From the NCBI GenBank assembly GCA_035998995.1, contig DASYHC010000112.1:18209-82208 (forward strand): DNA of 64,000 bases. The letters run 5' to 3'. This document shows, one piece after another, positions 6,395 through 53,236 of this stretch. The DNA comes from Bosea sp. (in: a-proteobacteria) (GTDB taxonomy: Bacteria > Pseudomonadota > Alphaproteobacteria > Rhizobiales > Beijerinckiaceae). Below the pieces are notes generated by a model that was given only the letters and a program-made list of their open reading frames with translations, was not told the origin of the DNA and did not search any database. The translations under genes were made by a program, and so were the position numbers. Every line of letters starts with the position of its first letter. Positions within the stretch are counted from its first letter, which is position 1.

Positions 6395-6967
6395 ATGAAG
6401 AACCCGAGCACCCGCCTGGTTTTCGACTACTGGGACACGTTGCGCGGCGATCGGAGCGCTCCCGAACGGGGCGAGATCGAGCCGGGAGCGCTGCGCCACG
6501 CGCTGGCCGACACCTTCGTGCTCGAGAACGAGCCAATCGGGCCGGTCTTCCGCCTCGCCGGCACGCGGCTCTGCGCTCTGTTCGGCCGCGAGCTGCGCGG
6601 ACGCGCCTTCACCGCGCTCTGGCCCGATGTCGAGGCGCAGGGCGACATGCGCCGCCTGGTCCAGACCGTGATGGACGAGACGGCGGGCGCCGTCGCCGGC
6701 CTCACGGCGCAGACTGAGAACGGCGCTACGGTGCATCTCGAGTTGCTTCTGCTGCCGCTCCGCTATCGCGGGCGGACCCATGCACGCATCCTCGGGGCGC
6801 TGTCGCCGGCCCTGTCGCCGGAATGGCTCGGCCTCGATACGCTCGATTCGATGCGGATGATCTCGCTCAGGATGATCTGGCCGGATGCGCGCGCGCTGCG
6901 CCCGGCCGACGCTACGACCCAGGACAAGCGGCCGAAATTGATGCTCCTGCCCGGCGGCCGTATCTGA
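6395..6967 (+). CDS. PAS domain-containing protein (alphaproteobacterial PAS_5-like)
   Basis: MKNPSTRLVFDYWDTLRGDRSAPERGEIEP..FRLAGTRLCALFGRELRG resembles the small PAS_5 family as I recall it. ATG at 6395. Confidence 0.65.
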   Translation: MKNPSTRLVFDYWDTLRGDRSAPERGEIEPGALRHALADTFVLENEPIGPVFRLAGTRLCALFGRELRGRAFTALWPDVEAQGDMRRLVQTVMDETAGAVAGLTAQTENGATVHLELLLLPLRYRGRTHARILGALSPALSPEWLGLDTLDSMRMISLRMIWPDARALRPADATTQDKRPKLMLLPGGRI

Positions 6968-7003
6968 TAGCACTAACCACCTCTTAACCGCCGAGCCGGT
7001 AGC

Positions 7004-41952: not shown

Positions 41953-41978
41953 TGGTCGGAGCGAGAGGATTTGAACCT
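41953..41978 (-). pseudogene. 3' fragment of chromosomal tRNA-Pro(GGG): T-loop, T-stem, acceptor, CCA
   Basis: The minus strand reads AGGTTCAAATCCTCTCGCTCCGACCA. This complements the 5' fragment at 53179-53236. Confidence 0.85.
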
Positions 41979-42000
41979 TATACGCCCTGGTTGTGTTCAG
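41978..42000 (+). repeat. left terminal inverted repeat of the element
   Basis: TTATACGCcctggttGTGTTCAG compared with the reverse complement of 53155-53177, TTATACGCgatcgaaGTGTTCAG (18/23 identical). Confidence 0.7.
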
Positions 42001-42035
42001 TGTGTATGTAGATGCATGATCGCCTCGCGGCGTTC

Positions 42036-42245
42036 TCAACGCAAGGGGCCTCGCCTAATGGGCTCCTCGTCGTCGCGAGGAGGGAGCGGCACTCGGTCTT
42101 CGAACCGTGGCAACGGTGGAATGCCCTTCAGCCGGTGGAAGCGGTCGGAGATGGCCCTGACTGTCCGCCTATAGTTTTCGTGCCGCATCGGGTCGAATGT
42201 GGAGAGACCCGAAGGACTGTCACCATGGTCGCGGATGGTCGACAT
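42036..42245 (-). CDS. small hypothetical ORF (doubtful)
   Basis: 69-aa ORF overlapping the GNAT gene end. No motif and poor support. Confidence 0.2.
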   Translation of the reverse strand: MSTIRDHGDSPSGLSTFDPMRHENYRRTVRAISDRFHRLKGIPPLPRFEDRVPLPPRDDEEPIRRGPLR

Positions 42246-43032
42246 CGTGAGCCTCCTTGTAGGTGTCGAACAGATCAAACCCATGCGTGTCCCTGAAACT
42301 GAACGCACCGAGCCATCTGGTGCCTCGGTGTAGCATAATAGCCTTGCACAGGGACACAGACGTATTCGTGCCTTGTGGGCCCGGCCCGGGCACGCTTTGC
42401 GTGAAGACCAGGAGATCGCGCGCCGCCCGTCTGTCCTTCAGTGCAAGCACGGCGGCGACCGCGGCGTGCGTTTCCTCGTCGATCTCGCCTTGGGCGAGGC
42501 AGAGTGCGATCTTCTGGGTTGCCGACGGCACGATGTGGAAACGCCACGACGTCTCGTCCGGGAGGAAACCCATACTGAGCCAAGCGTAGCGCCCGATGTC
42601 CTCGGCCTCGATGTCGATGCTTTCCAGGCCGATCTTCCGACCGAGCTCGATGAGATTGATCATGAGCCCCGTCCCGATGCCCCGGCCTTGCAGATCCGGG
42701 TTGACCTGCGTCTCCCCGTCGCGAGCGATGGCTTCCGTGACCTCGAACCGCTTCGATTTCAGGAAGAGACGCGTGGTGTCGGGAGCGATGCCGCTGATCT
42801 CGATCTCGAACATCTCGGCCTCATGATCCAGGTTCGAGATCACGCCACGGATCGCGCCGGGAGCCCCGTCAGCGATCGCGTCGACGAACTGCTCCGGGAA
42901 CAGGCCGGCGGTTTCGAGGAAGCGGTCGTTCCACCACCGGGCGGCCTCGACGGACAGAGGCGGGTCGAAGCTCACGTACTGGTTGTCCGTGAAGCGGTCC
43001 GGCCATCCCTTCGGCGTTGCGTCGTCTGTCAT
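42220..43032 (-). CDS. GNAT-like acetyltransferase-fold protein (island cargo)
   Basis: LQGRGIGTGLM fits the GNAT motif A Q/R-x-x-G-x-G/A, followed by GRYAWLSMGF. The long N- and C-terminal extensions have no recognisable motifs. Confidence 0.55.
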   Translation of the reverse strand: MTDDATPKGWPDRFTDNQYVSFDPPLSVEAARWWNDRFLETAGLFPEQFVDAIADGAPGAIRGVISNLDHEAEMFEIEISGIAPDTTRLFLKSKRFEVTEAIARDGETQVNPDLQGRGIGTGLMINLIELGRKIGLESIDIEAEDIGRYAWLSMGFLPDETSWRFHIVPSATQKIALCLAQGEIDEETHAAVAAVLALKDRRAARDLLVFTQSVPGPGPQGTNTSVSLCKAIMLHRGTRWLGAFSFRDTHGFDLFDTYKEAHDVDHPRPW

Positions 43033-43252
43033 GGCCCTATGATATGGGGATGATCGAAAGCGACAATCGCGCAGATGCCGCAGAAGGCCGCTCCGGGCTC
43101 ACCAGGGATCATGGGCCCGCCTGACCCGCTGCGCCGCGCCCCGGCTCCTTCCCTTGCACCGAGGTGCTCGCCGGCAAGGGACGCTGCGCTCTTCGCCCTT
43201 GCCGGCTCCGCGCCTCGATGACCGCGGGACGCCGCGACGGCGGCTCCGGGGA

Positions 43253-45298
43253 TCAGGCTACGGCGACCTGGGATGCGGGCGGGGACATCCCTACCCAATC
43301 GAAGCCGACCCGCCGGCGGTCGGATGCCCATGGCCTCTCCAGAGCGGTCGCCAACGCCGACCGTTCCCCGACGACGACGACTTGCCTCTCGGCCCGGGTC
43401 ACTGCGGTGTAGAGCCACGATGGATCCAGCACCATCGATCGGTAGACCGGCACGATGACCCGCGCGGCCTGGCTGCCCTGGCACTTGTGGCAGGTCACCG
43501 CGTAGGCGAGGGCAAGGTCGATGAGCGCCCCCATTTCCGCAGGCGGGCGCCGTTCGAGGTCGCCGGACAGGAATCGGAATGTCCTCCCGTCGATCTCGGC
43601 GACGACCACGCGCTCAACCTCGTCGACCTCGACGACCTTTCCCATCGACCCGTTGAACAGGCCCAGCTTGTAGTCGTTCCGGAGATGGATGCAGGGGTCG
43701 CCCGGGCTGAACCACTCGCCGAGATGGCCCTTGATGACCGGGAGCCGCCGGGCCTGCTGCCGCGATCGCTGGAACATCCTGTTGAGGGGCCCGACGCCGG
43801 CGGGGCCGTCGTTGGTCGCGGTCACGACGACGAGCTCGCCGGCGTCGAAGCCGCCCAGATCGGCGGCCACCTTCGCAACGACGTCCGGGATGCCGTCCAA
43901 CGGGGATTCGACGAAGGAGACGCCGTCGACGGCACCGGCGTATTCCGGCAAGGGCGGCCACCTGCGATCGCGGACGGCCGCCGCCACCGCCGGGATGCCC
44001 GAGGCCTCGGTCTGACGGTGCACGACGCGCAGCCTCGCCGCGATGGCGTCGTCCATGACGAGCCGGTGATAGACAAGGCCGAACGAGATCGGAGGCAGCT
44101 GGGCCGGGTCGCCGACAAACAGGATGCGGGCACGATCGGGCACGTGACGCAGGAGGCGGTAGAGCGTGGAGAGATCCACCATCGACGCCTCGTCGATCAC
44201 GATCAGGGTGCGGTCGTCGATGCTGGCCAGGGCCGCGAGCTTCGTCCGGATGCGCCCGGCCCGCTCGGGCTCGGCGTCCTGGAGCTCATCTTCCAGCCGC
44301 CGCGTCTCGTCGAGCTCCCCGAGCAATCGGGCGAGCGTCCGCGCGAGGCGTCCGGACGCCCGCGAGAGCCGCAACGCGGCCTTGCCGGACAGCGCCGCGA
44401 GCAGCGTCGAGCCGCCCGTCGCCTCCCACGCCCGACAGACCGCACGGGTCGTGTGGGTCTTGCCTACGCCCGCGCCGCCGAGAAGGCAGGACACCGGGTT
44501 GGCGAGAACCTTGAACACCGCCGCGGCCTGCTCCGGATGAAGCCCCGCGAAATCGATGAGGGAGCCCTTCTGGAGGTCCTTAAGGACGCTTCGCGGCAGG
44601 GGCTCGGCCAAGCGCTGGATGACGGCCAGCTTGGCGACGACGTCCTCTTCCATCGTCGCGCAGCCCGGGAACCGGAGGGTGCCGTCCGCATCGACGAGCG
44701 CGCCGTTGCGCAATCCCGCGGCGATGGCCTCGCCGACGATCGCATCGGCCTCGCGCGCCCCGAGGAGGCGGGCGACCTCGCCCGGCAGGTCGGACAGGGA
44801 AATGGCGGTGTCGCCCCGCGAGATACCGGCCTTCGCGACCGCGTCGATCGAGCCGACCAGCCGCCGGAGATCCCTGCGCGGGTCCGGGACGCCTTCCTCA
44901 CGCAGGACGGCAAGCCCCAGCCGGTCGACCTTGGACCAGGGGAGGAGCGGCACGAGACAGTAGGGGTTTGCCGAAAGCCGCGTCGCCGCGTCGTCGCCCA
45001 GGATGCGGCAGAGCCGGCGCGCGAAGGCCAGGCCGTCCACGCCCCGCTCGGACAGCCACGAGATCGTCGCGGCCTCCCCGGCGGCCTCCTTCCAGGCCGA
45101 GACGGCCATGGCGGCGAGGCGGAGGGCCAGCAGGGGCCGATCGCGATCGAGCGCGGCGGCGATGGCGGGCACCTTCGATTCGTCGGAGAGGACGGATGGA
45201 AGGCTATCGCCGAAGGCCTCGCCCAGGCGCCGCGCACGCTCGGGCCCGATGCCCTGCACCCGTGAGGCGACGTAGTCCCGGACAAGCGTCCCCGGCAT
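43253..45298 (-). CDS. RecD-like SF1 DNA helicase
   Basis: N-terminal HhH-like VQGIGPERARRLGEAFG. Walker A LLGGAGVGKTHT, Walker B LIVIDEASMVD, FVGDPAQLPPI, and C-terminal AYAVTCHKCQGSQA...LYTAVTRA. The ATG overlaps the upstream stop (ATGA). Confidence 0.85.
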   Translation of the reverse strand: MPGTLVRDYVASRVQGIGPERARRLGEAFGDSLPSVLSDESKVPAIAAALDRDRPLLALRLAAMAVSAWKEAAGEAATISWLSERGVDGLAFARRLCRILGDDAATRLSANPYCLVPLLPWSKVDRLGLAVLREEGVPDPRRDLRRLVGSIDAVAKAGISRGDTAISLSDLPGEVARLLGAREADAIVGEAIAAGLRNGALVDADGTLRFPGCATMEEDVVAKLAVIQRLAEPLPRSVLKDLQKGSLIDFAGLHPEQAAAVFKVLANPVSCLLGGAGVGKTHTTRAVCRAWEATGGSTLLAALSGKAALRLSRASGRLARTLARLLGELDETRRLEDELQDAEPERAGRIRTKLAALASIDDRTLIVIDEASMVDLSTLYRLLRHVPDRARILFVGDPAQLPPISFGLVYHRLVMDDAIAARLRVVHRQTEASGIPAVAAAVRDRRWPPLPEYAGAVDGVSFVESPLDGIPDVVAKVAADLGGFDAGELVVVTATNDGPAGVGPLNRMFQRSRQQARRLPVIKGHLGEWFSPGDPCIHLRNDYKLGLFNGSMGKVVEVDEVERVVVAEIDGRTFRFLSGDLERRPPAEMGALIDLALAYAVTCHKCQGSQAARVIVPVYRSMVLDPSWLYTAVTRAERQVVVVGERSALATALERPWASDRRRVGFDWVGMSPPASQVAVA

Positions 45299-45762
45299 CA
45301 GGCGAGGTCGCCGGTGCGGAGGACCATGCCCGTCTCGCCGAGGAGCCGGATCTGCTCCGTCAGCGAGGCGATCGTCCGCCGCTGACGCTCGATCAGGGCC
45401 TCCCGTTCGGCCAACGCCCGGGCCAGGTCGTCCCTGTCGGACTGGGCCCGGCCCAGGCGATCCTTGGCGGCCTTGTCGATGACGTCGGTCAACGCACGTG
45501 CCCCGATCGGCTTGACGCCTTGCCGGACGGCGACCGAGTTCACCAGCGCGGCGAGCTCGGGCTTCTTGTAGAAGTGCTGCTCCTGGGCCTGTGTGAGCCC
45601 GCAGACCTCGACGGCGAAGGCGCGGACGTTGACCTTGCCGTCGTCGGTCATCGGCAGCGTCGGTCGCCGTCCCTCCTCGGGCTGCGCCTCCCACGCCGCG
45701 TCGAGCGCCTCCAGCCGCTCGCCGACGAGAGGGACGAGGGTTTCGAGGATCGAGCGCGGCAT
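45298..45762 (-). CDS. small HTH-like/coiled-coil protein (second ginD-like gene)
   Basis: 154 aa. VNVRAFAVEVCGLTQAQEQHFYKKPELAALV, then heptad-rich LARALAEREALIERQRRTIASLTEQIRLL. Start shares 1 nt with the upstream stop (TGATG). Confidence 0.6.
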   Translation of the reverse strand: MPRSILETLVPLVGERLEALDAAWEAQPEEGRRPTLPMTDDGKVNVRAFAVEVCGLTQAQEQHFYKKPELAALVNSVAVRQGVKPIGARALTDVIDKAAKDRLGRAQSDRDDLARALAEREALIERQRRTIASLTEQIRLLGETGMVLRTGDLA

Positions 45763-46271
45763 CAGCCGTCCTCTCTCAACTGGACGACCGGTGCGGAAGG
45801 AGCCAGGCCGACGACATGGTCGGGGCGACCATTCCGGGCGTTCCGACCGGCACGGCGAGCCATGCTCTTGGCGTGCTGGATCTGCTTGTGTGCCACGTTG
45901 ACCGCGTCCTGGAGACGAGTGGCCAGGATCGCCTTTTCCTGCCGGAGCAGCGCGTTTTCCTGTCGGAGCGCGGCGATGGTGCTCTGGGCGTCGAGCTTCG
46001 GCGTGGGCGCCCGTGGTGCGGCGACCTGAGCCTCCATGCAGGCGAGCACTTCCCGCCGGACATCGGGGTAGGCGCAGCCCTCGATGCCGATCAGCGTCCG
46101 GCTGCGGTTGGCTTCCTTGGCGACGGAGGCGACGCTGATCCGAAGCCTGCCTTCGCGCTTTGCCTTGACGTTGTCCGGATGGAGCGGCTGCCCGCGCCGC
46201 AGACGACCCAGCGCCGCGCGCAGGTCGGCTCCGGCGTCGGGACCGGTTTGGATGTTCGTCTCACGCGGCAT
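45762..46271 (-). CDS. small HTH-like/coiled-coil protein (ginD-like position)
   Basis: GGGAGG RBS precedes the ATG at 46271 (GTG at 46277 also possible). ISVASVAKEANRSRTLIG, then the zipper IAALRQENALLRQEKAILATRL. Overlaps the recombinase C stop. Confidence 0.6.
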   Translation of the reverse strand: MPRETNIQTGPDAGADLRAALGRLRRGQPLHPDNVKAKREGRLRISVASVAKEANRSRTLIGIEGCAYPDVRREVLACMEAQVAAPRAPTPKLDAQSTIAALRQENALLRQEKAILATRLQDAVNVAHKQIQHAKSMARRAGRNARNGRPDHVVGLAPSAPVVQLREDG

Positions 46272-48288
46272 CGGCACCTCCCATCACGACATTCATCTTG
46301 CGAAGGATCGCCTCCGCGGTCGCCACGCGCTCGGCGGCCACCGCGGCGATGGCGTGCTCGCCGGCGGCGCGGCCCTCGTCCCGAAGCCGGAGGTTCGTCG
46401 CGAGCCGCTCCTTCCAGAAGGGTTCGTGGGTCTCGGCGACGAGCAGGTTTGAGCAGGAGCAGCAGACGCCCGGCTGCCGGTGCGAATAGCGCGGCCGTCG
46501 CGCGGCGAGGTCGAAGGCGCCGACGGCCTGATGGTGGCAACGGGCGGTCTCCGGCCGGAACAGGCAGGCGCCCCATGCCGCCCCCCAGACGCGCACGTCG
46601 TCCTCCGCCACCGCGGAGGTGAGCCGGGCGAGGCGGTCGGCATCGGTGCCTTCGGTTCCCATCAGCGCCTCGATCGATCCGGCGTTCTCCCGGATCGTGT
46701 CGGCCATCTTGCCGGCGACGCGACCGGTCCCGTTGACGGCGTCGAACAGGAGGCGGGCGGCCTCGCGAGTCGCGACGTCGTCGAGCAGGCCTAGGAGCTC
46801 GGGGTCCGATCCGAGGTATCCCTGCTCAGTCATGGCCAGGGACATGTGCTTGAAGTGGTCGGACAAGGCGGGCAGCAACCTCTCGTCCGAGCGGACGACG
46901 TATTGCGCGAAGGACTTGCGCCATTGGTGTGTGCTCAAACGCCAATCCCGGAAGCCGTCCGGCAAGTCCACGAAGTCTCGCATGAACCGGACCTGGCCTT
47001 CGCGTAGGTCGTCGCTCAATACGCCGGCGGGCCGGGACTCGGCCGCCGGGTCGTGCCAGAAGGCTCTGGACGACAGGATGAGGTCCGACAGGCTCCGCGC
47101 TTCGCGCCAACGCCGGAAAAGGCGCTCCAGCACCAGGATCGCCTCGACGGGCGGCGGGATCACCGCCGTGCCGACCGGGCGGGAGCCCGCCACCCACTCG
47201 ACCTCCTGCCATTGGTGCCGTCCCTTGAAGACGCGACCGCGGACGTAGAAGATCTCGTTGAGGCCGCTCGCCGAGGGCCTGACCTCTACGCAGGCCGGCC
47301 AGCCCGTTTCCGGATCGACCGGCTCGGCCTTCAGGCCGGCGACCTCGCTGATGCGCATCCCGAGCATGGACTGGAGCACGATGGTGCACGCCGAGCGCAG
47401 GTCGTGGATGAGCCGGCGCATGCGCCGGATCTCGCTTAGTTCCAGCTCCTCGCCCGACTTAGTCCATCCAAGCAACGGATCGATCGCGGGGTTGCGGTCC
47501 TCGCTCCACATCCGGTTGAGGTCGCGATTGAGGCGGTAGCTGTAGGAATTGGACATGCGGGAGGTCTCGCCGTTCTTGGCGTGATAGGCCCGCGCCCACT
47601 CCACGATCAGGTCCGCGCGCTTCCCGAGCCAGCACAGGGCCTCGGGGACGACGGCGAGGAAGACGGGGTCCGGCACGGGCGGGATCGCCCCGGCGACCCG
47701 GGAGCCCAGCGTCCTCGCGACGGCGTAGGCGGCCTCGCCGCCAAAAGGATGCTCGGGCATGACCGCGCCGTCCGTGCCCGACAGCGCGGCGCGCTGTTCA
47801 TGGATGCGGACCAAGACGTCGAGATGGACGGCGAGCTTGATGGCCGTGACGTCTTCCTCCGAGCCGTTCGCCTTGTCGGCGACGAGATGCGCGACGAAGT
47901 CCCGCGCTAGATCGGCGTCGAGCTCCGCGAAGCTCGACACGCCCGCCGTCGCCATCCAGCGGACCAGGTAGCGAAGGCCGAACCCGATATCGGCGATCGT
48001 GGCGTCCTTGAGCTGCGCCCCGCGGTTGTTGGCCGATCTCAAGGACCAGACGAAGCGTCGGCACATTTCGAGCAGCCGGGACCACTTCGGATCGGTGAAG
48101 ACCGACCCGTCGGGCATGTCGAAGTCCCAGAGCACGACGGGCTCGCGCTTTCCCGCCGTTGTGGACGGAAATCGCCAAGAAGGATCTCCCCAGAGGCTCT
48201 TCGCGGAGACCTGGATGATACTGATCGGCATCCTCGCGATGCGCACGGGAGCCTGTTGGCGGTCGAGCGTGACGAGCCTGTTTACCAT
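46261..48288 (-). CDS. tyrosine recombinase C (large, 675 aa)
   Basis: SMLGMRISEVAGL (Arg I), STHQWRKSFAQY (H-x-x-R), DHFKHMSLAMTEQGYLG (His/Tyr). Cys-rich C-terminal tail (C..C-H-H...CCSC). Confidence 0.85.
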   Translation of the reverse strand: MVNRLVTLDRQQAPVRIARMPISIIQVSAKSLWGDPSWRFPSTTAGKREPVVLWDFDMPDGSVFTDPKWSRLLEMCRRFVWSLRSANNRGAQLKDATIADIGFGLRYLVRWMATAGVSSFAELDADLARDFVAHLVADKANGSEEDVTAIKLAVHLDVLVRIHEQRAALSGTDGAVMPEHPFGGEAAYAVARTLGSRVAGAIPPVPDPVFLAVVPEALCWLGKRADLIVEWARAYHAKNGETSRMSNSYSYRLNRDLNRMWSEDRNPAIDPLLGWTKSGEELELSEIRRMRRLIHDLRSACTIVLQSMLGMRISEVAGLKAEPVDPETGWPACVEVRPSASGLNEIFYVRGRVFKGRHQWQEVEWVAGSRPVGTAVIPPPVEAILVLERLFRRWREARSLSDLILSSRAFWHDPAAESRPAGVLSDDLREGQVRFMRDFVDLPDGFRDWRLSTHQWRKSFAQYVVRSDERLLPALSDHFKHMSLAMTEQGYLGSDPELLGLLDDVATREAARLLFDAVNGTGRVAGKMADTIRENAGSIEALMGTEGTDADRLARLTSAVAEDDVRVWGAAWGACLFRPETARCHHQAVGAFDLAARRPRYSHRQPGVCCSCSNLLVAETHEPFWKERLATNLRLRDEGRAAGEHAIAAVAAERVATAEAILRKMNVVMGGADAA

Positions 48289-48292
48289 CGTC

Positions 48293-50152
48293 TCACTCCA
48301 GATCCGGCAGCGGCGGCAAAGTCACCGACGAAGCCTTGTGCACCGTCGCGGCGGGGAACCGCGGCAGCCAAACCGACCGCAGGGCCTCGGCCTGGGGCAG
48401 CCAGACATCCATCCACCGGACGGGATGCACGCGCGACCGGGCGACTTCCATCTGCGCCGCAAGCTGGGACAGGCGCAGGAAAACCTTGGGATCGCCGACG
48501 TCGACGCAGGCGAGCGGACACGCCGGGCATTGCCCGTAGGCGGTGCAAGCCTGCCCATCGCGCTGACCGGGCAACGGCGAGAACAGCGGCTCGAAACAGG
48601 AGAAGCCCGGCGTCGCTGCGCTGCCCCGGCCAGCGTCGAGGAAGCCGTTTCGCGTGTCGGCACGACCGCCGGTGGCGACGAAGCGCTCCCGCCACGCCAT
48701 GGCGGTGGCGAGCGCCTCACGGCCACGCTCCCTCATGGTGGACGTCTCGTAGGAGCGGTGTGTCGTCGACACCGTAGCATGGCCCAGCAAGACCTGGTTC
48801 GCCTTGATGTCGCCTCCGCTCGCGATATCGACCAGATCGGATGCCGTCTTGCGCATCATCGACATCGTGAAGGCCGGCAGCCCATAGTCCGCGATGAAGG
48901 TGGCGAGGCCGCGATGCCAGAAACCGTCGCCGGCGGCGCCTTCCCCCGCGTCGAAGCCGCCATATGTCTCGGCGCGCGGGGTCCAGAAGACGAACACCCG
49001 GTCCCGGTGGCGCTCGTCCACGTGCCGGCGCGTGAAGCGGGTGAGCCGTTCCAGGGTCCGAAGCAAGTTGACCGGCGCCTCGGGGGCCGAGAGCCCTGCC
49101 GCAAATGAGCGGTAGTGCTTCCGCTTGGCTCGCGCCTTCCGCGCGCCGACCCGCCATCTCGCTTCGCCGAAAAGCGGATGGCTCCGTTCGACGTCATGCC
49201 ATTCCAAGGTCAACAGGCCTTCGGGGTTGAAGGCCCCGTCTATGGCCAGGAGCAATGCGAAGGGCACGATCGCGCGCGGCGAGAGATGCAGCGCGGACGC
49301 GACCTCCGCGTAGGAGCCGTAAGGGGACACCATCGAACGGGCGAGGCCGTAATCGCTCGCGGCGAGCAGGTCGCGCGCGGGGATGCGCGAGTCGTAGCGC
49401 TGGACGAGCGCGGCGAGCCGCACGACGGGGTCGCGATAGGGCGTTACGGAGCGGGCGCCGGGAGATGGCAACCTATCCGGAGACATCAGTTCGGCCCTGT
49501 CCGCGATCTCCATCCGCGCGACCGTCTCCGCGATATCGTCGATGCATGCCCTCCTGATCAGGGACAGGTCGAGATGGGAAACGGCCTCGCGCGGCCGGAC
49601 CTGACGGTGGTTCAGAGGCCAGGGATTGCGCCTGAAGCCGAAGTCCCGATCGCGGATGGGTGCGCCTCGCGCCGATGACCGCAGATGGTCGAACAGGTCC
49701 GCGACCGCACGGTAGCGCTGCGTCTTGGTCAGCCCCGACCAAGGTGTCCCATCCGACTCGCCGGTGTTCAGCCACGCCTCGAAGCGTGCGATCGCGTCCG
49801 CGTCGATGTCAGCCAACGTTTCGACGGACGAGCCTTCGAGCAGGAAGGCAAGAAAGGGGTTCAGGATCTTCGCGATGCCCTGCCGGGTCGACCGGGCGAG
49901 AAGCCCCTTGGTCGACAAGTACTCAGCGACGGCGAGACCGATGTCGCGCCTGATCAGCCAGTTCGATAGGTCGATCTCCTGCACGCCTCCGGCGCAGGTC
50001 GCGTCGCGGAAGCGCACCAACAGCCGATCCGGCTGCTCCACGACGCCGAAGATGACCGGCAGCCTCGCGGGAACCGCTTCCTTCGCCTTCGGCAGCAGAT
50101 GGGCGGGAACGGCGCGCCCGGCGCGTCGCCTGAGCGGTTCAGGCGAGCGCAT
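48293..50152 (-). CDS. tyrosine recombinase-family protein B (619 aa, atypical active site)
   Basis: MSMMRKTASDL and LLGHATVSTTHRSYE give a recombinase box II. Box I reads DGAFNPEGLL with no Arg. Cys-rich tail C..C..C..C. Confidence 0.75.
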   Translation of the reverse strand: MRSPEPLRRRAGRAVPAHLLPKAKEAVPARLPVIFGVVEQPDRLLVRFRDATCAGGVQEIDLSNWLIRRDIGLAVAEYLSTKGLLARSTRQGIAKILNPFLAFLLEGSSVETLADIDADAIARFEAWLNTGESDGTPWSGLTKTQRYRAVADLFDHLRSSARGAPIRDRDFGFRRNPWPLNHRQVRPREAVSHLDLSLIRRACIDDIAETVARMEIADRAELMSPDRLPSPGARSVTPYRDPVVRLAALVQRYDSRIPARDLLAASDYGLARSMVSPYGSYAEVASALHLSPRAIVPFALLLAIDGAFNPEGLLTLEWHDVERSHPLFGEARWRVGARKARAKRKHYRSFAAGLSAPEAPVNLLRTLERLTRFTRRHVDERHRDRVFVFWTPRAETYGGFDAGEGAAGDGFWHRGLATFIADYGLPAFTMSMMRKTASDLVDIASGGDIKANQVLLGHATVSTTHRSYETSTMRERGREALATAMAWRERFVATGGRADTRNGFLDAGRGSAATPGFSCFEPLFSPLPGQRDGQACTAYGQCPACPLACVDVGDPKVFLRLSQLAAQMEVARSRVHPVRWMDVWLPQAEALRSVWLPRFPAATVHKASSVTLPPLPDLE

Positions 50153-51614
50153 CGAGTCGCTCCTTCAAGAGGCGCGCGAAGGTGTCGGAGATCTCCGGCT
50201 CCCGGGTCTCGACGTGGCGCAGGTAGATGTCCTGGGTCGTGCTCAGGCGCTTGTGGCCCAGCCGCGCCTGGAGCTTCTTCCAGGGGGCGGGGTTGCCGGC
50301 CTGGATTTCGGCCCAATAGAATTGGCAGGCGAAGGTGTGCCGCAGGTCGTGAAAGCTGTGCTTCGCGACGTCGCGCGCTTCGAGGATCTCCTCGCCGTGT
50401 TCGTCGATGGCCGGCGACCCCGTCGAAGGATCGATCCGATAGGTGGTCTCCGTCCGCGTCAGCCCGGATGCGAGCACGGAGGCATGGAAGGCGCGCATCG
50501 CCGTCGCCGGCGACGTCTTGCCTCCGACGTCCCGGCTTGTGGATCGAATTCCGTTCAGGAAGAGCGCATTGGAGGCGTTGCGGCCACGCTGCTTCGCCGA
50601 CCTGACGACCGACGCGCGCTCGCCATCGATGTAGGCTAGCAGAGCCTTCACAAGGAAAGCTGGGATCACGACCGTGCGGGGAACCCCGCCCTTGGCGACG
50701 GTGATCCGCAAGGGCAAGGGCCGCCAGCGATCGGACAGGTCCTCGCCCCGTGCGACGTCGAGGATCTGGTAGATCGTCAGGCCGACGACTTCCTCAACGC
50801 GCATGCCGGTGTAGAGCGATGTCTCGGCGATCAGCCGGTCACGGGTCGCGCGAGCGTCGTTGTCGTCGATGTCGTATGGGGAGGCCCCTAAACCGTCGAG
50901 GATGGCCGTGAGGTCTCCCATCGCGATCGGGTTCACGTGCTCGTCCACCGCCGCCGGTCGTGGACGGAGAGGGCTCGCCGCGGCGACGCGGATGCCGCCG
51001 GTATGAGGCAGGAACGCCCTGTCGATGTCCACTAGGCGCTTGGTCCCCGCTTCCACGACAGGGCATTCCTCGACAAGGCCGTGCCGGTGCGACCAGCGAT
51101 ACAGCGCCTCGACCGTGCCGATCCGGCGCGAGATCGTCGCGGACGAAAAACGGCGGCCACGGGTGGATACCCCCTCGACCAAGGCTTGCGCATAGGCGCG
51201 CAGGTCATCCGCCCCTACCGCGTCCCATCCCAGGCCGTGCAAGCGCAGATACGTCCACCAATGGACGAGATCGTCGGCATAGGCGGTCTGGGTCTTCTGC
51301 CACCGTCCGCGGCGGGCGGGGACGTGGCAGTGGTCCAGCAGAAACAAGTTGGCCGGCTCGATAGGATTGAGATCGTCGTCGAAGAGCATGACGAACCCCG
51401 CCGGCGTGCGGAGTCCCCGCATGGTAGCGCCGTCGAAATCGCCGGCCTCGTCGACGGAGTAGTCGACGGCCCTGATGCGATGGATCGTCGCCATGGCGAA
51501 GTTCTGATTGTCGTTGTCGCCGTCCACGCCCCGCACCGCGCATTGCTTCCCGAGGCGAGAGACGTCGACGACGCTCGCGTTCCGTTCGGGTTCGATCCTC
51601 GCTCGGGCGACCAT
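50139..51614 (-). CDS. tyrosine recombinase A (491 aa)
   Basis: SLYTGMRVEEVVGL (Arg I), HSFHDLRHTFA (H-x-x-R), ARLGHKRLSTTQDIYL (His, Tyr). 14-nt overlap with the recombinase B start. Confidence 0.85.
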   Translation of the reverse strand: MVARARIEPERNASVVDVSRLGKQCAVRGVDGDNDNQNFAMATIHRIRAVDYSVDEAGDFDGATMRGLRTPAGFVMLFDDDLNPIEPANLFLLDHCHVPARRGRWQKTQTAYADDLVHWWTYLRLHGLGWDAVGADDLRAYAQALVEGVSTRGRRFSSATISRRIGTVEALYRWSHRHGLVEECPVVEAGTKRLVDIDRAFLPHTGGIRVAAASPLRPRPAAVDEHVNPIAMGDLTAILDGLGASPYDIDDNDARATRDRLIAETSLYTGMRVEEVVGLTIYQILDVARGEDLSDRWRPLPLRITVAKGGVPRTVVIPAFLVKALLAYIDGERASVVRSAKQRGRNASNALFLNGIRSTSRDVGGKTSPATAMRAFHASVLASGLTRTETTYRIDPSTGSPAIDEHGEEILEARDVAKHSFHDLRHTFACQFYWAEIQAGNPAPWKKLQARLGHKRLSTTQDIYLRHVETREPEISDTFARLLKERLDALA

Positions 51615-51637
51615 GACTCGCGCAGCTCCAGAAACCG

Positions 51638-52600
51638 TTACGATCGAGCCCGGCCCAAGGGCCGAATTCGGTCATGGTTATCGAAATCGAGGCCCGCGAG
51701 CGTCGTCGCAGGGGCGAGCGCCGTCGATCGCTCGATCAGTCTCGCCAACTCGACGGCCACCAAGGCGGCGTCGCGTGCGTGCTCGCTGCCGAGCGACACG
51801 GCCTGCGCCGACTTCAGCACGGCATGGGCTGTCGGATCGAGCGTCGCGACCGGCGCCGCCAGCCCGTCCCGTCCGACGACGAAGCCAGCGCGCGGCGCTC
51901 CTTCGAGCGCCGAGGAGACGGCCCGGATCGCGTCGAGCTCGGGGAGCGTGGCGATGAAGGCTTCCAGCACTTCCGAGGCGTCGTGGACGTGGATGCGGAG
52001 GCCGCTGGATCCGACGATGGCGGTGCCATCGGCGTGCCAGGCTTCGTCGGGCCGGGCCGCCCGAAGGGCTCCGCCAATCGAAGGCAGGACGTCCGACACC
52101 AACCCGTCCGGTACGAGAAGGTCGATGTCGGCCAGCTCTGCCTCGACCCGAACGCGGGCCTCGACGGCATGGGCGTGGGTGGCGCAGCCTCCTAGGAGCA
52201 TGCATGCCTGCCAGAGGCCCGCGCGGTCGAAGGCGCGAAAGACGTCGGCGACCGGTTGGGGCACCAGCGCGAGGCGGAACGCACGCGCGGCGCGCGACAC
52301 ATCGGCCATGCGGGGGCCGAGGCTGCGACGCTCGGCTGCGACGCTCTCGCGAGCGGCATAGAAATCGCCATACTCGGCCTCCGTCGCCGGCGAACGACGA
52401 CCGCGAGACCGCGCCTGCTTCTTCTTGGTGGTCGGATCGGTCCAGAAGCGGGTCAGGTAGTCCTGCCCGGCGACGTTCTTCCACTGAAAGCCGCCGCCCA
52501 ACCCTTCCTCGCGCTGAAGGAGGGATCGATGCAGGCGATCGACCGTCATCACGTCGTCGAGAACGCGAGACTGCTCGGCAGAGAAGGGAATGAAATGCAT
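51638..52600 (-). CDS. nucleotidyltransferase-fold protein (GSU2403-family-like, from memory)
   Basis: GGGFQWKNVAGQDYLTRFW...SRGRRSPATE...LLGGCATHAHAVE...ADIDLLV resembles that family as I recall it. ATG at 52600 or 52612. First gene of the recombinase operon. Confidence 0.5.
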   Translation of the reverse strand: MHFIPFSAEQSRVLDDVMTVDRLHRSLLQREEGLGGGFQWKNVAGQDYLTRFWTDPTTKKKQARSRGRRSPATEAEYGDFYAARESVAAERRSLGPRMADVSRAARAFRLALVPQPVADVFRAFDRAGLWQACMLLGGCATHAHAVEARVRVEAELADIDLLVPDGLVSDVLPSIGGALRAARPDEAWHADGTAIVGSSGLRIHVHDASEVLEAFIATLPELDAIRAVSSALEGAPRAGFVVGRDGLAAPVATLDPTAHAVLKSAQAVSLGSEHARDAALVAVELARLIERSTALAPATTLAGLDFDNHDRIRPLGRARS

Positions 52601-52641
52601 TTTGATACCCATAATGGATCGAACCAATATTGGGTATCAAA
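52601..52641. promoter_or_regulatory. perfect 11-bp inverted repeat flanking a T-loop-like core
   Basis: TTTGATACCCA-taatGGATCGAACCaatat-TGGGTATCAAA, directly at the 5' end of the recombinase operon. Confidence 0.6.
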
Positions 52642-52692
52642 TCGCTCCAGACAATGCGCGTCGCGGTTGTTCGTTAACGGGTGGTGAAGAAG

Positions 52693-52767
52693 TGGTCTGG
52701 GATCTCGGGATCGAACCGAGGGCCTGCACGCCCCAAACGCGCCGCTCTACCGCTGAGCTAATCCCAG
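52693..52767 (-). tRNA. tRNA-Pro (anticodon UGG), island-borne
   Basis: The minus strand folds as CTGGGAT TA GCTC AGCGGTA GAGC G GCGCG TTTGGGG CGTGC AGGCC CTCGG TTCGATC CCGAG ATCCCAG A CCA. C1-G72 and A73 are Pro identity elements. Confidence 0.9.
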
Positions 52768-52964
52768 GAAAGGGATCGCCGAAACGGAATTAGGAGTGTT
52801 CAGTCAAGGCGAGAGAAGGCGGGCGTCTGAGCACCTGCAATCTCGAAAAAGCCGTTCAGGATGAATGGAGTAGCGCCGATTGAACATGTGCAGAGCATGT
52901 TCAATAATTGCAGATCGCTGTGCGAACTGGGCGGCAAATTCAGGCCAGTGGTGGTGGAGGGGGA

Positions 52965-53006
52965 GATGATGGGCTGGACCCACATAAAGCAGTCCAGCCC
53001 ATCATC
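52965..53006. other. 15-bp perfect stem hairpin between the two island tRNAs
   Basis: GATGATGGGCTGGAC-N12-GTCCAGCCCATCATC. No U-tract, so function is unknown. Confidence 0.5.
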
Positions 53007-53052
53007 AGCAGAGCGGCGATTTCCAGCCAAGTGCTTGAAATCATTGACTTTT

Positions 53053-53130
53053 TGGTCGGAGTAGCAGGATTTGAACCTGCGACCCCATGTCCCCCAGACA
53101 TGTGCGCTAACCGGGCTGCGCTATACTCCG
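53053..53130 (-). tRNA. tRNA-Pro (anticodon GGG), island-borne replacement copy
   Basis: CGGAGTA TA GCGC AGCCCGGTTA GCGC A CATGT CTGGGGG ACATG GGGTC GCAGG TTCAAAT CCTGC TACTCCG A CCA. It differs from the split host copy only by compensated stem changes. Confidence 0.9.
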
Positions 53131-53154
53131 TCAAGGAAACCGCTCTGAAAACTC

Positions 53155-53177
53155 CTGAACACTTCGATCGCGTATAA
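53155..53177 (-). repeat. right terminal inverted repeat of the element
   Basis: Plus strand is ctgaacacttcgatcgcgtataa. See the left repeat at 41978-42000. Confidence 0.7.
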
Positions 53178-53178
53178 C

Positions 53179-53236
53179 GAACCTCCGACCCCTTGTCCCC
53201 CAGACAAGTGCGCTAACCGGGCTGCGCTACGCTCCG
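53179..53236 (-). pseudogene. 5' fragment (nt 1-58) of chromosomal tRNA-Pro(GGG)
   Basis: The minus strand reads CGGAGCG TA GCGC AGCCCGGTTA GCGC A CTTGT CTGGGGG ACAAG GGGTC GGAGG TTC and then breaks. Confidence 0.85.

Follow-up and report, generated by a model that had tools for sequence, protein, structure and literature searches.

A 64,000-nt stretch of Bosea sp. DNA (contig DASYHC010000112.1, positions 18,209 to 82,208; referred to here as the window) contains an insert of 11.2 kb (41978-53177) that interrupts a host tRNA-Pro(GGG) gene in its T-loop. This insert is very probably an integrative element of the SE type (strand-biased circularizing integrative element), its 23-nt ends being recombinase-binding termini and the counterparts of the SE motifs C and C'. 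The element has defined ends, a crossover hexamer at its junctions and a characteristic set of proteins, and it has moved recently between tRNA-Pro genes. The arrangement of inverted arms around a 6-bp spacer is a published trait of SEs, so that as geometry it is a rediscovery; new are the alphaproteobacterial host, the target in the T-loop of a tRNA gene, the replacement tRNA genes, the conserved accessory genes and the bipartite layout of the repeats. It seems to be the first element of the SE type that targets a tRNA gene, and no later papers extending SEs to these hosts or targets were found in the literature searched.

Terminal repeats and the interrupted tRNA-Pro gene

The left end of the element reads TTATACGCCCTGGTTGTGTTCAG (41978-42000) and the right end (53155-53177), once reverse-complemented, reads TTATACGCGATCGAAGTGTTCAG. 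These two imperfect terminal repeats of 23 nt agree at 18 of 23 positions, and both 8-mers within them are identical and equally spaced. An earlier note on this DNA had claimed inverted repeats with 18/23 identities and two matching 8-mers, and its coordinates, sequences and identities were all reproduced. In the 64-kb window, the pattern TTATACGC-N7-GTGTTCAG with up to three mismatches matched the two element ends only, with 0.11 matches expected, and two or more matches to it were obtained in none of 100 shuffles. The exact sequence TTATACGC is found at both ends and nowhere else in the window, and an identity of 18/23 was reached by none of 200,000 random pairs of 23-mers. The repeats are therefore far above chance, an explanation also excluded by the fact that they abut the break points of the split tRNA gene. 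A scan of the element and its relatives revealed no further copy of the repeat within the element interior. The integrase-distal repeat (TTATACGC-N7-GTGTTCAG, plus strand) would be the counterpart of SE motif C' and the integrase-proximal one (minus strand) that of motif C. The subterminal sequence TGTGTATGT (42001-42009, plus strand) is kept in all lineages and confined to the distal end, which makes the two ends asymmetric.

Comparing the ends of homologous islands had been proposed in the earlier note as a check, and it was done with a set of 11 related loci from five lineages: the repeats are kept in all of them and co-vary between lineages. Each of the 11 loci has one repeat copy per end, a tRNA-Pro gene split at GGTTCR and an intact tRNA-Pro(GGG) gene that begins 35-47 bp inside the integrase-proximal end. 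The layout of the repeats is bipartite, with an outer arm of 8-11 bp, a gap of 7-9 bp and an inner arm of 8 bp, amounting to 23-25 nt. In L007-L010 both ends have TTATATGGGGT in place of the outer arm TTATACGC, in the Microvirga element L138 both have TTATATGC, and the inner arm (G/C)TGTTCAG is retained across lineages with a spacing of 7 or 9. Judging from these sequences, the joint change of both ends is what would be expected of a recombinase-binding site that they share. As for the extent of the group, the 619-aa protein of the element is 100% identical to a protein of Bosea thiooxidans, and only eight other homolog clusters were found, with identities of 47-88%. Two of the related elements, L001 and L002, align without gaps over 11,182 bp at 99.72% identity, and they reside in different genes, tRNA-Pro(CGG) and tRNA-Pro(GGG), respectively, with different surroundings; this near identity in different tRNA-Pro genes indicates recent mobility.

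In the window, the 3' remainder of the split host tRNA-Pro(GGG), which in tRNA sense reads AATCCTCTCGCTCCGACCA, lies at 41953-41971 and the 5' part at 53184-53236, both on the minus strand. Joining 53236-53178 to 41971-41953, with the hexamer counted once, yields a valid 78-nt tRNA-Pro(GGG), so the 11.2 kb in between are an insertion into the T-loop. This tRNA occurs uninterrupted and in exactly the same form in a Bosea metagenome-assembled genome (L054) and in L080; the 5' part and the 3' remainder are identical to the corresponding parts of these intact genes, the halves in the window showing no differences from the native tRNA. The genes on either side of the tRNA in L080 match the flanks of the window, and L080 therefore represents a roughly syntenic empty site. 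The host tRNA is not rebuilt by the insert: its 5' part continues directly into TTATACGC, and the element sequence beyond the hexamer is unrelated to tRNA. The T-loop is a known sublocation of crossover for tyrosine recombinases that act inside tRNA genes.

The hexamer at the integrase-distal side (attR, 41972-41977) is TGAACC, or GGTTCA in tRNA sense, one base off the native GGTTCG; that at the integrase-proximal side (attL, 53178-53183) is CGAACC, or GGTTCG, and equals the native T-loop hexamer. The two copies are identical at 5 of 6 positions. What all insertions have at either junction is the hexamer GGTTCR (YGAACC on the plus strand), which occupies tRNA positions 52-57. A duplication of GAACC(T) had been described before, and GAACCT does occur at both places indicated for it (41973-41978 and 53179-53184), but its T belongs to the repeat at the left, as the first base, and to the tRNA at the right. 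The tRNA base at that position differs in L007, where the register holds for the hexamer alone, and across relatives the duplicated unit is the hexamer. The placement of strand exchange in the tRNA T-loop, also put forward in the earlier note, agrees with the presence there of a 6-bp crossover hexamer flanked by conserved and co-varying termini.

The two copies of the hexamer are unequal in 4 of 7 independent insertions, with changes restricted to its first or last position. The proximal and distal copies are GGTTCG and GGTTCA in the window, GGTTCA and GGTTCG in both L001 and L009, and GGTTCA and AGTTCA in L138. Since the mismatches are confined to the hexamer and the tRNA halves in the window are native, the hexamer is the exchanged region, and the unequal copies exclude a target duplication made by repair. 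In the window the native hexamer is GGTTCG, so the distal GGTTCA is the foreign copy. The distal copy is also the foreign one in L138, where AGTTCA would set A52 against C62 in the T-stem, causing a mispair. The foreign hexamer is at the distal border in both decidable insertions, the remaining five of the seven being uninformative. The native tRNA of L007-L010 was sought through the neighbouring LuxR gene; in relatives with a LuxR identity of 83-88%, the tRNA-Pro(GGG) at the syntenic site is intact and its T-arm is different. Among at least 120 entries listed in the genome scan, no intact tRNA of the L007 or L001 type was present, while the Bosea type was.

Some minor observations relate to the hexamer. 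In L002 (position 11242) there is an extra A between the distal repeat and the hexamer (TATAA-A-GGTTCG), making 7 nt instead of 6, which could be an assembly error or a real crossover variant. The element-borne tRNA-Pro(GGG) of the L007 lineage (6895-6972) has AGTTCG at positions 52-57. An earlier stay in the tRNA of another element could explain the distal foreign hexamer AGTTCA of L138 (20963-20968). A likeness of the element arms to the tRNA sequence flanking the hexamer, checked by eye, was discarded, as it is not conserved between lineages.

Core proteins and family assignment

All the genes of the element are on the minus strand and, from the first recombinase gene to that of the helicase, they overlap or are a few bases apart. 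The four core genes, whose ends overlap or are 4 nt apart, encode in sequence proteins of 491, 619, 675 and 171 aa: an IntA-like tyrosine recombinase (A, 50139-51614), with the Pfam domain Phage_integrase and a SAM-like N-terminal domain; a Tfp-like protein with the recombinase fold (B, 48293-50152); an IntB-like large tyrosine recombinase (C, 46261-48288); and a small Srap-like protein (D, 45762-46277). B and C were identified by alignment and by hhalign to Tfp and IntB of SEs, and D by hhalign to Srap. Protein A reads GMRVEE...HDLRH...LGH...Y, and the family alignment of C shows invariant R312, K355, H454, R457 and H481, together with the Tyr. In that of B, the first catalytic Arg is replaced by Asn in 8 of 9 members and by Ser in the other one, and the first His is absent. 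A recombinase, an incomplete recombinase-fold protein, a large recombinase and a small protein make up the SE order IntA, Tfp, IntB, Srap.

Profiles of the group containing the window element were compared with recognised SE proteins by hhalign, which gave 99.9% for A and IntA (E 7e-34), 99.6% for B and Tfp (E 2e-24), 100% for C and IntB (E 8e-41) and 96% for D and Srap (E 3e-9 to 5e-9), with non-cognate pairings at 20% or below. Clear homologs of all four core proteins at this profile level are present in Bosea, in Microvirga and in a Methylobacterium-like host. The same four-gene layout was identified by tblastn against plasmids in Vibrio pSNUTY2, a Pseudoalteromonas plasmid and a Pseudomonas megaplasmid. 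The first two (L015 and L016) have the same gene order, and their B and D genes are tfp and srap orthologs according to Idola 2023 (Additional file 3); the order holds for the megaplasmid (L013) as well, whose D protein serves there as the similarity reference for the srap-like gene of a listed pair of the same size.

The ends of SEs are imperfect inverted repeats of 13-19 bp, named C and C' after their equivalence to phage core-type sites, and in the circle junction, attS, a 6-bp spacer has been shown experimentally to lie between them. The 6 bp beside C at the integrase-proximal border enter the circle; upon insertion, the carried 6 bp end at the distal border and the target's own 6 bp remain proximal (PMC9345347, PMC10214605). 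SEs are called by a split attB and a joint that forms imperfect inverted repeats with a 6-bp spacer, and their circles have been found experimentally to form in a strand-biased manner without an empty site (PMC10214605). SEs have been reported as confined to Gammaproteobacteria, and the main text of the paper on their host range does not mention tRNA.

The window element resembles SEs in its core genes (intA, tfp, intB and srap, in this order and overlapping at their ends) and in the R-H-R-Y set of IntA and IntB next to a Tfp that has the fold but an incomplete set, and each of its four core proteins is homologous to its counterpart in recognised SEs. It also shares the imperfect terminal inverted repeats corresponding to C and C' (18/23, conserved and co-varying in five lineages), a 6-bp unit at both junctions whose copies may be unequal, and site-selective insertion. 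Carrying a homolog of the disrupted target gene has a precedent as well, since SE-6283 inserts into bcp while carrying a bcp homolog (PMC9345347). Unlike described SEs, the element is located in an alphaproteobacterial host and targets a tRNA T-loop, and it keeps a gene for a 154-aa protein and one for a RecD2-like helicase downstream of the srap-like gene.

Assignment to the GInts, the label used in the earlier note, was rejected. GInts are alike in having three recombinase-fold proteins plus a small fourth one, a 6-nt crossover, imperfect short direct repeats at the junctions and site-specific insertion (PMC5385486). In their ginABCD genes, GinA and GinB are catalytic and the incomplete protein, GinC, is the third (PMC10214605), whereas here the incomplete protein is the second and the third is fully catalytic. 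The proteins match SE profiles, but in the comparison with one GInt, that of E. coli Sakai (ECs_3509-3512, with ginC and ginD as given in Additional file 10 of Idola 2023), every hhalign pairing stayed below 8%, and no homology to GinA-D was obtained. The same note had remarked that inverted ends are not part of the description of GInts; this is accurate for GInts, for which no common feature was found at the distal end (PMC5385486), but does not apply to this element, inverted ends being a published criterion of SEs.

Other known families were also considered. Tn554, as summarised in PMC10214605, combines two tyrosine recombinases with a small protein for which a resemblance to Srap is claimed; its ends are inverted and imperfect, and a 6-bp sequence is taken from the donor to the new site. 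A Tn554-type transposon (TnpA, TnpB, TnpC) was discarded because Tn554 is without a Tfp counterpart and a Tfp-like gene is present here; its hosts are Firmicutes, and this distinction follows its description, not its sequence. RIT elements likewise have terminal inverted repeats (34 bp, PMC10214605) and three tyrosine-recombinase genes side by side, but all three RIT proteins are catalytic and of 315-410 aa, and there is no small fourth protein. A RIT element was discarded too, since the three proteins here measure 491, 619 and 675 aa, the first Arg is missing from the middle one, and a fourth gene, Srap-like, accompanies them. In the case of classical phages and islands targeting tRNA genes, the 3' part of the tRNA in the attachment site rebuilds the gene, whereas here only 6 bp are common, the gene is destroyed and a whole replacement is carried. 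The tRNA gene not being regenerated, a classical tRNA-integrating island or prophage was rejected.

Crossover model, replacement tRNA genes and alternative explanations

By homology with SEs, each outer arm of 8-11 bp would bind one recombinase subunit, and cleavage would take place at the edges of the hexamer. If joined in a circle, the ends would give ...GCGTATAA-[6 bp]-TTATACGC..., whichever strand is read. The integrase-proximal flank would supply the copied spacer, so that GGTTCG is predicted in this case, with a window junction of the form ...CTGAACACAACCAGGGCGTATAA-GGTTCG-TTATACGCGATCGAAGTGTTCAG.... On insertion, the target hexamer would remain integrase-proximal and the carried one would arrive at the distal side. 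The geometry of arm, 6-bp spacer and arm that the earlier note had derived from joining the ends is well supported by the conserved ends and the hexamer and matches attS of homologous SEs; the spacer predicted there, CGAACC, is the one given by the published SE rule. The single database match to the predicted junction GCGTATAAGGTTCRTTATACGC, in L137 (3067-3088), was dismissed as a chance palindrome within an open reading frame of unrelated low-GC DNA. This match in the metagenome contigs is exact over 22 nt and has no similarity past the 22-mer, which calls for caution in junction searches with short patterns.

Two tRNA genes are carried by the element on the minus strand. An intact tRNA-Pro(GGG) (53053-53130) is located 24 bp inside the end, directly downstream of the 5' part of the broken gene, and is oriented like the split host tRNA, from which it differs in sequence. 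The other is a tRNA-Pro(TGG) (52693-52767), where the L004 lineage carries a CGG anticodon. A crude scan of the minus strand from the end to the element tRNA, using an E. coli-type consensus, detected no promoter-like site. The L001 element breaks tRNA-Pro(CGG) and brings the anticodons GGG and TGG, which suggests that the pair serves to secure proline decoding irrespective of the tRNA-Pro gene hit; the two element tRNAs would cover the decoding capacity lost. Whole replacement tRNA genes would avoid the cost of destroying the target. With regard to the second tRNA-Pro, its anticodon is TGG in the window and L001-L003 and CGG in L004-L006 (L004 7386-7460), in matching position and with a nearly identical body, indicating an anticodon switch between close relatives.

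It is conceivable, although we regard it as rather doubtful, that these elements form a hitherto unrecognised alphaproteobacterial branch of SEs specialised on tRNA-Pro, which destroys its target at positions 52-57, substitutes its own tRNA-Pro driven by the host promoter and thereby acts by gene-replacement addiction, the RecD2-like helicase and the nucleotidyltransferase serving replicative copy-out. If so, the host's supply of that tRNA would reside in the element and, because an SE-type copy-out regenerates no empty site, the arrangement would act as an addiction through gene replacement.

The same ends and the same 6-bp crossover might also serve a classical two-strand exchange through a Holliday junction and 6-nt staggered cuts, as in GInts, integrative and conjugative elements and phages. 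Mismatched hexamers would then be heteroduplexes resolved by replication or repair, and excision would restore an intact tRNA-Pro. We consider this possible but somewhat unlikely. Mismatches in the hexamer only are predicted by it too, as Bardaji 2017 (PMC5385486) proposed for GInts, the foreign copy can be told in just 2 of 7 insertions, and both the IntA-like and the IntB-like protein have full catalytic sets. On the other hand, the four core proteins are homologous to those of SEs and not to those of GInts, it is for SEs that strand-biased circles without an empty site have been demonstrated (PMC10214605), and in both informative insertions the foreign hexamer is distal.

It is very unlikely that the interval is composite, with the tRNA and nucleotidyltransferase genes as a separate insertion and the true ends of the recombinase element elsewhere. 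Described SEs do have intA directly at the left end, and the closest four-gene relative outside the group, on Methylomonas pUP202, is without the extra genes; yet the boundaries are identical in all five lineages, down to 47% identity in the Tfp-like protein, tRNA-Pro(GGG) starts 35-47 bp from the terminal repeat in each lineage, and no second internal copy of the repeat exists. A DDE-type transposon with terminal inverted repeats, in which GAACC(T) would be a target-site duplication arising from staggered cleavage and repair synthesis, is more improbable still. The combination of inverted repeats and a short flanking direct repeat is transposon-like, but superficially so: the element has no transposase-like gene and only tyrosine-type recombinases, 4 of 7 insertions have an imperfect duplication, not expected of repair synthesis, and insertion is invariably at the same hexamer of tRNA-Pro genes.

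Several points weigh against the assignment to SEs and the strand-biased exchange that it implies. BLASTP identity to SE proteins is 22-29% for A, B and C, with marginal hits only for D. In their host-range study, the authors who described SEs detected homologs of neither Tfp nor Srap in Alpha- or Betaproteobacteria (PMC10214605). The integrase operon is not directly at the end of the element, two tRNA genes and a nucleotidyltransferase gene lying between the end and intA, while described SEs have intA directly at the left end; and the repeats are bipartite and of 23-25 nt, as opposed to the contiguous 13-19 bp of described SEs. A genuine circle junction was not found in the scan of metagenome contigs. 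The two hexamer cases are weak evidence for strand bias, their chance being about 1 in 4 under the classical heteroduplex model. The element tRNA-Pro(GGG) may be read from the promoter of the destroyed gene, a notion based on its orientation and on the crude promoter scan. Near-identical copies with differing hexamers could provide material for studying the strand-biased 6-bp rule outside Vibrio. The element is also relevant to the study of mobile elements and to island annotation, as tRNA-based island finders expect a regenerated tRNA.

Accessory genes and related elements

Between the integrase-proximal end and intA, all the tRNA-Pro-targeting lineages have an NTP_transf_8 nucleotidyltransferase-like gene (51638-52627, 329 aa, minus strand in the window, as are the following ones). 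The gene for a conserved 154-aa protein without family match (45298-45762) overlaps both its neighbours at its ends, and the RecD2-like SF1 helicase (43253-45298, 681 aa with the start as in relatives) is again present in all these lineages. The variable cargo (42036-43032) consists of an open reading frame of 90 aa and a 270-aa protein with a weak GNAT match. The gene for the latter is present in L001-L003 and absent in L004-L006, and the L007-L010 and L138 lineages have other genes instead.

Both the Tfp-like and the IntB-like protein have Cys-rich C-terminal segments, with C519, C536, C542 and C545 in one and C575, C584 and C612 in the other. These cysteines are invariant from Bosea to the SEs of Vibrio and Pseudoalteromonas, a degree of conservation that suggests metal-binding modules.

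Matches of ~27-31% to the Tfp-like and IntB-like proteins were obtained by tblastn in alpha- and betaproteobacterial plasmids, for example of Mesorhizobium, Agrobacterium, Sphingobium, Bradyrhizobium, Burkholderia and Variovorax; in one of these plasmids, that of Mesorhizobium sp. L-2-11 (L014), the layout of all four genes was checked. The clade appears to be far larger than the group targeting tRNA-Pro. Plasmid pUP202 of Methylomonas sp. UP202 (L011, 5773-11515) bears a minimal relative of ~5.9 kb with four genes, its large recombinase being 37% identical. It is located between traU and traN of a conjugative transfer operon and has no tRNA, helicase or nucleotidyltransferase genes. For its ends there are two candidate inverted repeats, GCAGAGCAT/ATGCTCTGC and GTGAAC-N-GTTCA motifs. 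L139, of the P0007 lineage, differs in gene layout and shows no tRNA target and no recognisable repeat, the contig being cut 644 bp upstream of intA.

In L017, L034, L038, L057, L088, L112 and L124, the 3' two-fifths of a tRNA-Pro, from the anticodon loop onwards, are preceded by non-tRNA DNA. These fragments resemble the displaced repeats of classical integrases that target the anticodon loop and are unrelated to the element studied here. Finally, the tRNA-Pro(CGG) targeted in L001, and in L003 too, lies within a dense tRNA cluster (L001 6550-6902 and 18278-19741), with Tyr, Leu and Leu upstream and Pro(GGG), His, three Leu and Pro(TGG) downstream. This cluster adjoins a 146-aa fragment with a His-tRNA synthetase match and resembles a tRNA gene array.

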